Shown piece after piece: positions 2,095-13,287 of a DNA stretch of 64,000 nt; the stretch's first letter is position 1, and each line of letters starts with the position of its first letter. Source of the DNA: Escherichia coli (lineage in GTDB: Bacteria; Pseudomonadota; Gammaproteobacteria; Enterobacterales; Enterobacteriaceae); assembly GCF_003790525.1 (NCBI RefSeq), contig NZ_CP033635.1; one strand, written 5' to 3'. The notes beneath the pieces are model-generated. The model was given only the letters and a program-made list of their open reading frames with translations. It was not told the origin of the DNA and ran no database searches. Made by a program: the position numbers and the translations under genes.

Positions 2095-3159
2095 ATGGTA
2101 ACGTCCTGTACTGGACATGTTTTAGATAATCAACGCGCCACCACTCGCGGAGTTTTCTCCTCCGGTAGTCATCTCGTCACTTTGCATTTTCAACCTCATC
2201 CTTTCTTTTCATGTGTTACCGACGCCGCAAACGGTGTGCGTAGCCGTTTTTCGGCATTTTATCCAAAAGCAAACTATGGCTTACAAGGAAGCCAACCCTC
2301 TGATGTTCGTGCGCATAATCGCGCTGCCAACGGCGCGTGTGATGAATACAAACAACTCAAGGTGCTCTCCATGGGAAGACAAAAAGCAGTGATCAAAGCT
2401 CGTCGCGAGGCAAAACGTGTGCTGAGACGGGATTCGCGCAGCCATAAGCAGCGTGAAGAAGAATCGGTCACCTCGCTTGTGCAGATGAGCGGCGTAGAAG
2501 CCATTGGTATGGCCCGCGACAGTCGCGATACTTCGCCCATCCTCGCGCGAAATGAAGCGCAATTGCACTATCTGAAGGCTATTGAGAGTAAGCAGCTGAT
2601 ATTCGCCACGGGCGAAGCCGGGTGCGGAAAAACCTGGATCAGCGCAGCAAAAGCGGCAGAGGCCCTGATACATAAGGATGTCGACAGGATTATCGTCACC
2701 CGTCCAGTTCTGCAAGCCGATGAAGATCTTGGCTTCTTACCTGGTGATATCGCAGAAAAGTTTGCTCCCTATTTTCGCCCGGTCTACGATGTGCTGGTTC
2801 GGCGCTTAGGGGCTTCCTTTATGCAGTACTGCCTGCGACCAGAAATAGGGAAGGTGGAAATTGCGCCGTTCGCCTATATGCGTGGACGTACCTTTGAAAA
2901 TGCAGTCGTCATTCTTGACGAGGCGCAGAATGTGACTGCCGCGCAAATGAAAATGTTTTTAACCCGCCTCGGGGAGAACGTGACGGTTATCGTCAACGGT
3001 GATATCACGCAATGCGATTTGCCTCGCGGCGTGCGCTCCGGATTAAGTGACGCGCTGGAACGTTTCGAAGAAGATGAAATGGTCGGGATCGTCCGATTCG
3101 GTAAAGAGGATTGCGTACGTTCAGCACTTTGCCAACGTACGCTACATGCATACAGTTAA
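2095..3159 (+). CDS. phoH: PhoH, phosphate-starvation-inducible ATPase (PhoH/PhoL family)
   Basis: 354-aa ORF with Walker A GEAGCGKT; internal in-frame start at 2372 (MGRQKAVIKA...) could give a shorter product. Confidence 0.9.
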   Translation: MVTSCTGHVLDNQRATTRGVFSSGSHLVTLHFQPHPFFSCVTDAANGVRSRFSAFYPKANYGLQGSQPSDVRAHNRAANGACDEYKQLKVLSMGRQKAVIKARREAKRVLRRDSRSHKQREEESVTSLVQMSGVEAIGMARDSRDTSPILARNEAQLHYLKAIESKQLIFATGEAGCGKTWISAAKAAEALIHKDVDRIIVTRPVLQADEDLGFLPGDIAEKFAPYFRPVYDVLVRRLGASFMQYCLRPEIGKVEIAPFAYMRGRTFENAVVILDEAQNVTAAQMKMFLTRLGENVTVIVNGDITQCDLPRGVRSGLSDALERFEEDEMVGIVRFGKEDCVRSALCQRTLHAYS

Positions 3160-3174
3160 GTGTATTATCGGCGC

Positions 3175-3205
3175 AGAGCCCGGGCGAACCGGGCTTTGTT
3201 TTATT
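3175..3205 (+). terminator. rho-independent terminator after phoH
   Basis: GC stem agcccgggcgaaccgggct followed by T-run ttgttttatttc. Confidence 0.6.
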
Positions 3206-3721
3206 TCATTAACAGCAAAGACTTTCACTTCAGGTTAACGTTCTGGGGGGCGACTTTGAGCGTGTTGATAAGCTGAAATTAATTCTGGTTTAGATGCTTT
3301 TACCAGGCATTTTTCGTCATAGCACGCGACCAATGTAATGCCTCCAGCGCGGAGAGTTTTTTGCCTATCTTTTTCCAGCCATTCAACCTGTACAGGAGGT
3401 CTGGTGCCAATTTTGCGTATGAGGTTTAATCAACAATGAGCCAAAATTTGACTGACTGATTAACACCAAATATATTCTCCTGATTTTATTTTTTAGGGAT
3501 AATATTAAAAATATAAGGTTAATCTTAATTAAATTTTTGGCTAATATTGTGTCTTGTTATTTTTTGTGGACGGCAAGCCGCAATGGCAAAATAGGTATGG
3601 TTGTAATAATCAAAACATGATACTAACTATATATAGATCGTTGAATTGTTGGCATGTAACTCGCTACAGCGAGTAGCGTTAGTAATGAAATATAATCAAC
3701 ATGGATAGGTGAAGATTAATT

Positions 3722-4408
3722 ATGAGCTTTATGGTTTTTGTAACTTGTTTGACAATTGCATTTGTCGCCGGTTTTGCTGTTGCCAGAAAATTGACACTCC
3801 GAAAAGTTGCCTCATCGGTAATCATCACTAAATCGCAACCAGTTCCTTCCTCTGCAACTTCCCCTGCTGTTAAGGCGTCGACAAGGAGCTATACACCGCA
3901 GAAAACCTATCGTGACTCTCGTTGGCAAGAACGAGATGAGTTGTTCCAGGGAATGGTTGCCGAAGGTATTTTATTGGAAGGAAAAGAGTGGTTAATTACG
4001 CGTTGTGAAAAAATCTATTTTGATAATCTGGAGAAATGGTTTGGACATTATTGTCATATCCATTGCCAGGTCTCTCTGGGGCGCTTGATCAACTTTCCAG
4101 AACAACCCGAGTTTAGCGAAGAAGAAAGAAAGCGTTTCTTTGCAATTTATAATGGAATGGCAATGGATTATGTTCTGGTTTCAAAGAAGAACAATAAAAT
4201 AGTCTGTGTTATTGAGCTGGATGATCCGAGTCATGAAAGGGCAGATCGCATTATTCGTGACCGTTGGTTGAATACGATTATGACTATTGCACGGGTGCCT
4301 TTTGTACGAGCTTCTGTCACTAAATTGGATGAAATCCCTCCGGTCTGGGATACCCGTGACAAAATGCGCCCATTAGCCGCGGCGACAAAGGGTGAACCGT
4401 TGCATTAA
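3722..4408 (+). CDS. hypothetical membrane-anchored protein; N-terminal TM helix, Ser/Pro/Thr-rich linker, Cys/His cluster, DUF2726-like (PD-(D/E)xK-fold-like) C-terminal module; not present at this position in K-12
   Basis: 228-aa ORF preceded by very AT-rich leader; hydrophobic N-terminus MSFMVFVTCLTIAFVAGFAVA; motif MDYVLVSKKNNKIVCVIELDDPSHERADRIIRDRWL resembles the DUF2726 core; about 40% GC on hand count of first 120 nt. Confidence 0.6.
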   Translation: MSFMVFVTCLTIAFVAGFAVARKLTLRKVASSVIITKSQPVPSSATSPAVKASTRSYTPQKTYRDSRWQERDELFQGMVAEGILLEGKEWLITRCEKIYFDNLEKWFGHYCHIHCQVSLGRLINFPEQPEFSEEERKRFFAIYNGMAMDYVLVSKKNNKIVCVIELDDPSHERADRIIRDRWLNTIMTIARVPFVRASVTKLDEIPPVWDTRDKMRPLAAATKGEPLH

Positions 4409-4499
4409 CTAAGTACCCCGATCGGGGCTTCTCATCCCCCCGGTGTGTGCAATATACGAAAAAAAAGCCCGTACTTTCGTACGAGCTCTTCTTTAAAGA

Positions 4500-4587
4500 T
4501 GGCGGTGAGGGGGGGATTCGAACCCCCGATACGTTGCCGTATACACACTTTCCAGGCGTGCTCCTTCAGCCACTCGGACACCTCACC
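4500..4587 (-). tRNA. serX: tRNA-Ser (anticodon GGA), serX-like
   Basis: reverse complement reads GGTGAGGTGTCCGAGTGGCTGAAGGAGCACGCCTGGAAAGTG...GGTTCGAATCCCCCCCTCACCGCCA with long variable arm and CCA end; A-run on + strand 4462-4469 gives terminator on - strand. Confidence 0.9.
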
Positions 4588-4781
4588 AAATTGTTGTTCC
4601 TGTCTTGCTGGAACGGGCGCTAATTTAGGGAAATCATGACCTGAGGTCAACAAACTTTTTTAAAAAATCGCGCGTTTATTCAAACTTCAATCAATATGCA
4701 GTTTTAATAAGCGAAATTTGCTTTTTTTGCCACCGACCACGGATTTGTTATGCTGGTGGCTTTTGTAGATCATAACGATAA

Positions 4782-5813: not shown

Positions 5814-6551
5814 ATGTATCCCGTCGACCTTCATATGCATACCGTTGCCAGCACGCATGCATATAGCACATTGAGTGATTACATTGCCCAGGCCAAACAA
5901 AAGGGCATTAAACTTTTTGCAATCACCGATCATGGCCCGGATATGGAAGATGCGCCGCATCACTGGCACTTCATTAACATGCGTATCTGGCCGCGAGTGG
6001 TTGATGGAGTAGGGATCCTGCGCGGCATCGAAGCTAACATTAAAAATGTTGATGGTGAAATTGATTGCAGCGGCAAAATGTTTGATTCGCTGGATCTGAT
6101 TATTGCCGGTTTTCATGAGCCGGTTTTTGCGCCGCATGATAAAGCGACCAATACACAAGCGATGATCGCCACTATTGCCAGCGGCAATGTGCATATAATA
6201 AGCCATCCCGGAAATCCGAAATATGAAATAGATGTTAAAGCCGTTGCTGAAGCAGCCGCGAAACATCAGGTGGCGCTGGAAATCAATAATTCCTCTTTTT
6301 TACACTCACGTAAGGGAAGTGAAGACAATTGTCGTGCGGTAGCCGCAGCGGTACGTGACGCTGGAGGTTGGGTGGCATTAGGCTCGGATTCTCACACCGC
6401 GTTTACCATGGGTGAATTTGAAGAGTGTCTTAAAATCCTCGACGCGGTAGATTTTCCGCCAGAGCGCATTTTGAATGTTTCTCCGCGCCGCTTACTGAAC
6501 TTCCTTGAATCTCGCGGTATGGCACCGATTGCGGAATTTGCAGACCTTTAA
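5814..6551 (+). CDS. ycdX: PHP-family zinc phosphatase YcdX
   Basis: 245-aa ORF, N-terminal DLHMHT PHP motif. Confidence 0.9.
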
Positions 6552-12753: not shown

Positions 12754-13287
12754 ATGAAAACGCGTATTCATGTTGTGCAGGGTGATATTACCAAACTGGC
12801 CGTTGATGTGATTGTGAATGCGGCTAATCCGTCATTAATGGGAGGCGGCGGCGTCGATGGGGCCATTCATCGCGCAGCGGGTCCGGCGCTGCTGGATGCC
12901 TGTTTAAAAGTCAGGCAACAGCAGGGCGATTGCCCTACGGGGCATGCCGTTATTACGCTTGCAGGCGATCTTCCCGCTAAAGCCGTAGTGCACACCGTCG
13001 GGCCAGTCTGGCGTGGTGGTGAACAAAACGAAGACCAGCTTTTGCAGGATGCCTATCTCAATAGCCTACGACTGGTGGCGGCAAACAGCTATACGTCAGT
13101 GGCTTTTCCTGCAATTAGTACTGGGGTTTATGGTTACCCTCGTGCGGCAGCGGCTGAAATCGCAGTAAAAACCGTTTCAGAATTTATTACCCGTCACGCT
13201 TTACCCGAACAGGTATACTTTGTCTGTTATGATGAAGAAAACGCCCACCTCTACGAAAGACTCCTTACTCAACAAGGAGATGAATGA
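12754..13287 (+). CDS. ymdB: macro-domain O-acetyl-ADP-ribose deacetylase YmdB
   Basis: 177-aa ORF; macro domain motifs [19 protein letters not shown]. Confidence 0.92.

Follow-up and report, generated by a model that had tools for sequence, protein, structure and literature searches.

A DUF2726 protein encoded beside serX in Escherichia coli is predicted to hold a restriction-endonuclease-like domain at the inner membrane

We analyzed a stretch of 64,000 nucleotides from the Escherichia coli contig NZ_CP033635.1 (assembly GCF_003790525.1), hereafter the window, focusing on a gene at positions 3722–4408 (plus strand) that encodes a 228-residue protein with a DUF2726 domain. An earlier reading of the bare letters (the original prediction) had described this gene as a membrane-anchored protein with a nuclease-like fold, and proposed that it was a stand-alone defence or toxin gene. 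The open reading frame (ORF) and its translation are real and identical to those described there: the ORF is found in the ORF list, starts with ATG, and is a 100% match to WP_012311993 of strain SMS-3-5, already named “DUF2726 domain-containing protein” in RefSeq. The region 3200–4700 as a whole is 100% identical to the SMS-3-5 chromosome. A Shine-Dalgarno sequence (AGGTGA, 3708–3713) lies 8 nt before the start codon. In order, the genes of this region are efeB, phoH, the DUF2726 ORF, serX (minus strand), ghrA, ycdX, ycdY, ycdZ and csgGFED. The list of small ORFs contained no other plausible ORF in 3203–4414, consistent with a stand-alone gene and leaving no candidate for an adjacent small antitoxin or immunity gene. 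No cognate methyltransferase of a restriction-modification system was present either, the neighbours being phoH and serX/ghrA. The location in a variable spot linked to a transfer RNA (tRNA) gene was also borne out, since serX adjoins the gene and K-12 carries pgaABCD-dgcT-ycdU at the same place.

The protein has four consecutive parts. The first is an N-terminal signal-anchor (3728–3805, plus strand), composed of the hydrophobic residues 3–21 (FMVFVTCLTIAFVAGFAVA) and a basic flank, R22–K28 (RKLTLRK), with a predicted N-out/C-in topology. The Kyte-Doolittle mean over these 19 residues is 2.4, the AlphaFold2 (AF2) model has a helix at 3–29 with a predicted local distance difference test score (pLDDT) above 90, and the alignment places a helix of differing sequence at the same position in all close homologues; the proposed membrane anchor is thus well supported. 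It is followed by a flexible linker rich in Ser, Pro and Thr (3806–3907, plus strand; residues 29–62), also noted in the original prediction, with pLDDT values of 52–68 at residues 30–60 and with both length and sequence varying among homologues. The third part is a motif at Y63–G82 (YRDSRWQERDELFQGMVAEG; 3908–3967, plus strand), which contains an AF2 helix at 71–80 ahead of the nuclease core. The motif is kept as SRWExRDELFWGM in 18 close homologues and is not found in the consensus of the wider family, so that it marks a subfamily. The last part is the DUF2726 domain itself (3989–4336, plus strand; residues 90–205), with a nuclease fold of the Vsr-like PD-(D/E)xK superfamily and the residues E96, D149, E165-L-D167-D168-x-S-H171, R176, R179 and D180.

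The resemblance of the C-terminal core to DUF2726, initially noticed by eye, was confirmed by a profile search: Pfam PF10881 (DUF2726) matched residues 90–205 with an i-Evalue of 2.8e-18, covering model positions 3–116 of 126. NCBIfam gave no match, and the only match in PHROGs was phrog_14167, a family of unknown function. We built an AF2 model from an alignment of 114 sequences (mean pLDDT 88.3) and searched it with Foldseek. The top matches in the PDB, although with weak E-values, were all restriction-endonuclease-like: BstEII, BsaWI, TnsA, BpuSI, the RAP module of FASTKD4, and I-Bth0305I. This agrees with Steczkiewicz et al. 2012 (PMC3424549), who grouped DUF2726 together with Vsr and DUF559 in the PD-(D/E)xK superfamily; the family has also been described as a DNase of the restriction endonuclease fold (PMC3710099). 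More than 1000 structural matches were found in AFDB50, all named DUF2726. Sequence searches of the PDB with two profiles matched no solved structure, and accordingly no sequence match is detectable between the DUF2726 protein and the solved structures of the Vsr/DUF559/I-Bth0305I clade (PDB 1cw0, 3hrl, 3r3p). The members of that clade are soluble repair, homing or uncharacterised enzymes and, unlike the protein described here, none is membrane-anchored.

Across the 114 diverse members of the alignment, E96, E165, H171 and D180 are invariant, and D149, D167, D168, R176 and R179 are conserved in at least 90%. Such a constellation of conserved acidic and His residues on a restriction-endonuclease-like fold makes the domain look catalytically competent, as judged from the alignment and the model. 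Overall, the family assignment matches the existing annotation, and the earlier structural reading was largely right.

One structural element of that reading stood only in part. The original prediction had pointed to a compact Cys/His cluster that could bind metal. The residues are there (C95-x13-H109-Y-C111-H112-I-H114-C115), but we rejected a conserved metal site or zinc finger, since the ligands vary even among close homologues and the cluster lies along a core beta-strand (residues 111–118 in the AF2 model) and not in a loop or knuckle. Of 18 close homologues, 5 have H109, 4 have H112 and 9 have H114, and C95 is replaced by Ser in the Salmonella ortholog. Family-wide the two remaining cysteines are in the minority, C111 being present in 25 of the 114 members (mostly with Tyr instead) and C115 in 38.

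The anchor is not a peculiarity of the E. coli gene. In all 114 aligned members, the 15 residues that follow the helix contain more Lys and Arg than those that precede it (on average 4.3 versus 0.2), which by the positive-inside rule predicts a cytoplasmic nuclease domain. A search of 1.84 billion representative proteins with a subfamily profile returned 5656 proteins at E<=1e-3 and 25 at E<=1e-30 (clusters at 50% identity). Among the matches listed, an N-terminal hydrophobic segment was found in 123 of the 137 representatives of at least 140 residues; since the helix was part of the profile, the ranking may be slightly biased. A transmembrane (TM) helix plus DUF2726 thus appears to be the usual architecture, and a membrane-tethered, cytoplasmic domain is, by these sequence features, the normal layout of the family. 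Other PF10881 proteins, namely those of IncX4 and IncI2 mcr-1 plasmids, F-type plasmids and Vibrio inoviruses, and fusions to AbiJ-NTD3 (PMC12915395, PMC3710099), belong to the same family, mostly have the form TM plus domain and are uncharacterised. The SRWExRDELFWGM motif is what the E. coli/Salmonella/ICE/T6SS subfamily has in addition (about 25 of the 5656 clusters, E<1e-30; ICE, integrative and conjugative element; T6SS, type VI secretion system).

Entries of 151 residues named “DUF2726” (P0009/P0010) are present in thousands of Salmonella assemblies. We considered these as natural proteins without the TM helix, which would have been informative on toxicity, and discarded them: they are start-codon annotation artefacts, and the full ORF of 219 residues, helix included, is intact (2797–3456 in locus L141). 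The ortholog is therefore widespread in Salmonella.

We next consider the age of the gene at its locus. The original prediction had called it horizontally acquired; in any recent sense this does not hold. Of 5426 complete E. coli genomes, 1049 have the gene, each time in the order phoH, gene, serX, in two groups of alleles (about 99–100% and about 95–96% identical). Orthologues also directly follow phoH in E. albertii (87% amino acid identity), another Escherichia species (93%) and Salmonella (75%). The synonymous divergence (dS) from E. albertii is 0.40 for the gene and 0.33 for phoH, both being saturated against Salmonella. The ratio of nonsynonymous to synonymous divergence (dN/dS) against the orthologues is 0.16–0.32 for the whole gene and 0.4–0.55 for alignment columns 1–68 (helix and linker); for the domain it is 0.04–0.19, which indicates a functional gene. 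Conserved synteny, a dS like that of phoH and a low dN/dS together indicate that the gene is old at this locus, vertically inherited and under purifying selection. Three matches of 93–99% identity in “plasmid” records did not reveal carriage of the ortholog on true plasmids, since the records are 0.7–4.9 Mb long and evidently chromosomal. The GC content of the ORF is 0.43, versus 0.51–0.53 for its neighbours, and at third codon positions it is 0.40, versus 0.54 for phoH, which may reflect an ancient foreign origin. An intact ORF is present in 1043 of the 1049 carriers, with occasional disruption by the insertion sequence (IS) IS1, and about 80% of E. coli lack the gene; in K-12 its place is taken by pgaDCBA, dgcT, IS3, ymdE and ycdU. 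The gene has been repeatedly lost or replaced at this locus.

The segment specific to this allele extends over 3203–4414, from just past the phoH terminator to the start of a repeat unit that contains the 3’ end of serX. On the left, a terminator scan located the intrinsic terminator of phoH at 3173–3199 (plus strand), and homology to K-12 stops at 3202. The upstream part of the segment (3203–3721, plus strand; K-12 break point 3202/3203) is AT-rich, with a GC content of 0.36, and a promoter scan found promoter-like sites in it at 3448–3476 and 3583–3610. A functional link to phoH was considered and found no support, given the strong terminator and the AT-rich spacer of 520 bp between the two genes and the fact that homologues elsewhere are not near phoH. 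On the minus strand, Rfam strongly matched 2961–3154 (192 bits against a gathering score of 100) to the Yersinia antisense small RNA (sRNA) Ysr251; the match is antisense to the 3’ end of phoH.

On the right, the segment is bounded by the repeat unit of about 104 bp (4415–4518), delimited with blastn against K-12, O111, LR-48 and E. albertii. The unit consists of the last 19 nt of serX and the downstream terminator region, and occurs in tandem copies about 180 bp apart: four in K-12, two or three in other strains and one in the window. In the sampled loci, repeat units were located at 12962–13584 in L082 and 9873–10150 in L002, and from 9876 in L003 and 10877 in L019. Extra copies are named “RtT sRNA” in one RefSeq record (O111). 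Repeated integration or excision at serX may have left these units behind. The tRNA gene itself, serX (tRNA-Ser(GGA), 4500–4587, minus strand; ARAGORN and Rfam), has its 3’ end facing the DUF2726 gene and is a hot spot of island integration. In O111:H8, an island with an integrase is found between the DUF2726 gene and serX (10311–18687 in L002), so the hot spot is still active; its cargo includes primase genes of the YfjI-family, inovirus Gp2-type and “TOTE conflict system” kinds. Directly after the DUF2726 stop codon there is a GC-rich hairpin (4421–4441), which is similar to the T-arm of serX (21 nt, complementary to 4510–4530 at 86%) and has no T-run after it; it could be the terminator of the gene or a scar left by a tRNA fragment. 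We also looked for island att repeats on both sides of the gene; the one repeat found was the serX-3’ unit to its right, the hairpin being merely T-arm-like.

In Salmonella, the pathogenicity island SPI-19 is inserted at serX (PMC2907695), and we asked whether the gene is part of this T6SS island. It is not: the serX-3’ scar that forms the border of SPI-19 (10028–10080 in L005) is located beyond the gene and an IS, which places the gene outside the island, on the phoH side, and the SPI-19 system is of another T6SS type and convergent. One Salmonella genome, with no T6SS genes in the interval from the gene to ghrA, has the order phoH, gene, IS, ghrA. The adjacency to SPI-19 is thus a consequence of the serX hot spot.

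Homologues of the close subfamily are found in several other settings. In ICEs of the PFGI-1 type, the gene always lies between the TraG_N gene and the integrase; the instances are an E. coli paralogue (P0029, 37% identity, 10 genomes), Dickeya, Pectobacterium, and two from metagenomes or metagenome-assembled genomes (P0017, P0021). The Dickeya ICE carries a MazE/PIN pair in the same interval. In core clusters of one enterobacterial T6SS type the gene is directly upstream of tssF. It is preceded by tssA in Citrobacter, Rahnella woolbedingensis and Ca. Pantoea deserta, and by tssM, with an ORF of 56 residues to which tssA is reduced, in a metagenomic cluster that thus has no full tssA. These copies (7001–7660 in L014/L023, 9983–10630 in L020, 10007–10603 in L028 and 7001–7657 in L091) form one clade. 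In the three clusters with tssA the gene is co-oriented with its neighbours, at gaps of 18 and 28 bp that leave no space for an immunity gene. The Ca. Pantoea deserta copy seems degraded past about residue 125. The same junction in E. coli T6SS loci (L084, 3886–5719, and L083) is empty or holds a PAAR toxin and a small ORF, and in Rahnella aceris it holds nothing; it is therefore a variable cargo slot and not a core T6SS position. That the protein is itself a T6SS effector is unlikely, since there is no immunity gene and no PAAR, VgrG, MIX or chaperone, the Pfam scan of the protein showing neither PAAR nor MIX. In Erwinia, the gene is directly upstream of a module with vgrG, DUF2169 and a PAAR-like toxin.

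More distant relatives (25–35% identity), also with an N-terminal helix, are carried by filamentous phages and conjugative plasmids. Inoviruses make up 33 of the 48 IMG/VR contigs with a relative (L092–L139; see also 7794–8435 in L004), as judged by Zot/pI and usually pIV, with the DUF2726 gene beside the pIV secretin gene. On conjugative plasmids the relatives are near traG or traN, and mcr-1 surveys list DUF2726 on IncX4 and IncI2 backbones. The F-type plasmid pLD91-1-76kb of E. coli has two TM-DUF2726 genes near traG and dnaB (5857–6381 and 8527–9036 in L085); one has the full IELDDPSH and the other has lost the motif (LAVDFATADDE) and is maybe an inactive paralogue. No recurrent partner gene was found across any of these contexts, including a census of 46 loci of the wider family.

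The closest precedent for such a protein is SNIPE (surface-associated nuclease inhibiting phage entry) of E. coli, which is composed of an N-out single-pass TM helix, DUF4041 and a nuclease domain of the GIY-YIG type, and cuts lambda DNA during injection (bioRxiv 10.1101/2025.11.03.685801). DUF4041 binds DNA and the tape-measure protein, and SNIPE without its TM helix was toxic through cleavage of the chromosome. A review treats membrane localisation as one specificity class of anti-phage nucleases. Like SNIPE, the DUF2726 protein has no partner gene and is predicted to combine, in a single protein, one N-terminal TM helix (N-out/C-in) with a cytoplasmic nuclease domain at the inner membrane. 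Unlike SNIPE, its nuclease is of the Vsr/PD-(D/E)xK type instead of GIY-YIG, with no sequence similarity between the two, and DUF4041 is absent, the Pfam scan having found only DUF2726; with both SNIPE domains missing, it is not a SNIPE. The function of SNIPE was shown by experiment, whereas the DUF2726 protein is known here from its sequence and a predicted model. The earlier claim that no characterised system has this architecture therefore calls for a qualification: SNIPE is a characterised membrane-tethered defence nuclease made of a single protein, albeit unrelated in sequence.

Based on these observations, the explanation we favour, tentatively and at somewhat less than an even chance, is that the protein is a membrane-tethered nuclease acting on nucleic acid that enters through the inner membrane, in defence or entry exclusion. 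It would be a single-pass inner-membrane protein with a short periplasmic N-terminus, one TM helix, a flexible linker of about 35 residues, and a catalytically competent endonuclease domain (DUF2726, similar to Vsr and DUF559) held in the cytoplasm at the membrane surface. Foreign nucleic acid would be cut where it emerges through the membrane, the targets being injected phage genomes, incoming single-stranded DNA of conjugative elements or filamentous phages, and possibly RNA. The tether would keep the enzyme off the nucleoid, a spatial logic for telling self from non-self as demonstrated by experiment for SNIPE. In E. coli we see an old, vertically inherited, stand-alone chromosomal version of a gene that is otherwise one-gene cargo of ICEs and of a T6SS locus. 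What points to this explanation is the conserved anchor and active site, the lack of an immunity partner, and the carriage by elements that move DNA across the membrane. We infer the nuclease activity, its substrate, the membrane localisation in vivo and the defence or exclusion phenotype from sequence, the predicted model and analogy.

Several observations weigh against an entry nuclease. No family of PADLOC-DB v2.0.0 (5027 models) matched the protein at E<=1, nor its T6SS and ICE homologues; distant DUF2726 relatives had weak matches to HEC-02B or PDC-M47B (E 3e-4 to 2e-2). The 46-locus census (three ORFs per side, crude ORF calling, no control set, top 20 families) yielded mostly housekeeping neighbours, such as tRNA synthetases, SecA, PolA and MoeA, with scattered antitoxin or defence domains only (ParD, HicB, MqsA, GmrSD_N) and no evident defence-island signal. 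In Xenorhabdus (frmB/yegD) and Anaerobiospirillum (pdxH/purU) the gene stands alone between housekeeping genes, and the setting of the E. coli copy is of this kind too. The neighbourhood survey that the original prediction had suggested as a check was therefore divided: homologues do occupy cargo slots in ICEs and T6SS and occur in inoviruses and plasmids, but without a PADLOC match and with mostly housekeeping neighbours in the census. There is no obvious sensor or adaptor domain such as the DUF4041 of SNIPE, and a T6SS locus involves no entry of DNA, which makes this context a poor fit. The RAP-like structural matches are a further weak point; RAP domains (FASTKD4, apicomplexan mitoribosomal RAP proteins) differ in being eukaryotic, organellar and RNA-associated, within large multidomain proteins, at 7–9% identity. 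Finally, we found no functional study of any DUF2726 protein in the literature, where the family is mentioned only in transposon libraries of Avibacterium (biofilm) and P. putida (fluoride). On balance, that the gene has a role in defence is a reasonable hypothesis still to be proven, for which SNIPE now provides a characterised precedent in concept.

A broader and more doubtful version of the same idea is that TM-DUF2726 proteins are a widespread, minimal class of membrane-tethered Vsr-like nucleases, which would act as an all-purpose “gatekeeper” wherever nucleic acid crosses the inner membrane. For ICEs, conjugative plasmids and inoviruses, their use would lie in exclusion at entry or on superinfection, or in warding off pilus-specific phages; the T6SS lineage would carry them as cargo; and Escherichia and Salmonella would keep the chromosomal copy as innate immunity. 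The family would then be a second, evolutionarily independent one to use the spatial principle so far shown only for SNIPE, and would do so without any sensor domain.

Among the alternatives, we regard as unlikely that the protein is a toxin or abortive-infection effector activated by release, that is, a non-specific nuclease that infection or stress would free from its tether, for example by cleavage of the linker, to degrade host nucleic acid and kill or arrest the cell. The linker is indeed long, disordered, fast-evolving and rich in Ser, Pro and Thr, the toxicity of SNIPE without its TM helix offers a parallel, and the gene occurs by itself in variable spots and mobile elements. However, no protease, sensor or antitoxin partner was seen in any context, nor any sign of a trigger, and the gene has passed down vertically, under purifying selection, with no immunity gene beside it. 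We give a similarly low probability to a membrane-tethered endoribonuclease or RNA-binding protein, whose targets would be co-translationally inserted transcripts or incoming RNA. RNase Y has an analogous layout.

Slightly less probable still is that the protein is an accessory part of envelope-spanning machines (the T6SS, or the type IV secretion system of ICEs), with a role in DNA or RNA processing or in the control of assembly, the E. coli copy being an orphan. This would account for the co-oriented, tight packing between tssA and tssF, for the retention of the gene in the cluster without tssA, and for its fixed place after TraG_N in at least six ICE instances. On the other hand, related T6SS clusters work without the gene, their slot being empty or filled with toxin cargo in E. 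coli and holding nothing in R. aceris; no machine is near the E. coli, Salmonella, Xenorhabdus or Anaerobiospirillum copies, the SPI-19 T6SS of Salmonella being beyond the serX scar and of a different type; and the orphan copy is still under purifying selection. It is very improbable that the gene is a functionless remnant of an old serX island kept by chance, as its low GC content, its absence from about 80% of E. coli and the occasional IS1 disruption might suggest, given the ORF intact in all but six carriers, the low dN/dS of the domain over a divergence as deep as Salmonella, and the retention of all catalytic-type residues.

With 5656 representative clusters at 50% identity, DUF2726 is a large family that has no characterised member, and for which our analysis indicates, as the usual form, a nuclease domain tethered to the predicted cytoplasmic face of the membrane. 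Since K-12 does not have the gene, gain-of-function tests are simple. Should the protein turn out to be an RNase or a machine accessory, this would still be the first function for a large orphan family. If instead it cuts incoming DNA at the inner membrane, as we tentatively favour, membrane localisation would be a general and ancient means of distinguishing self from non-self for nucleases beyond SNIPE. This would explain the recurrent carriage of the gene by ICEs, plasmids (including the mcr-1 IncX4 and IncI2 backbones) and filamentous phages, and about one fifth of E. coli, as well as many Salmonella, would have a one-gene determinant that could influence phage therapy, conjugation and transformation.

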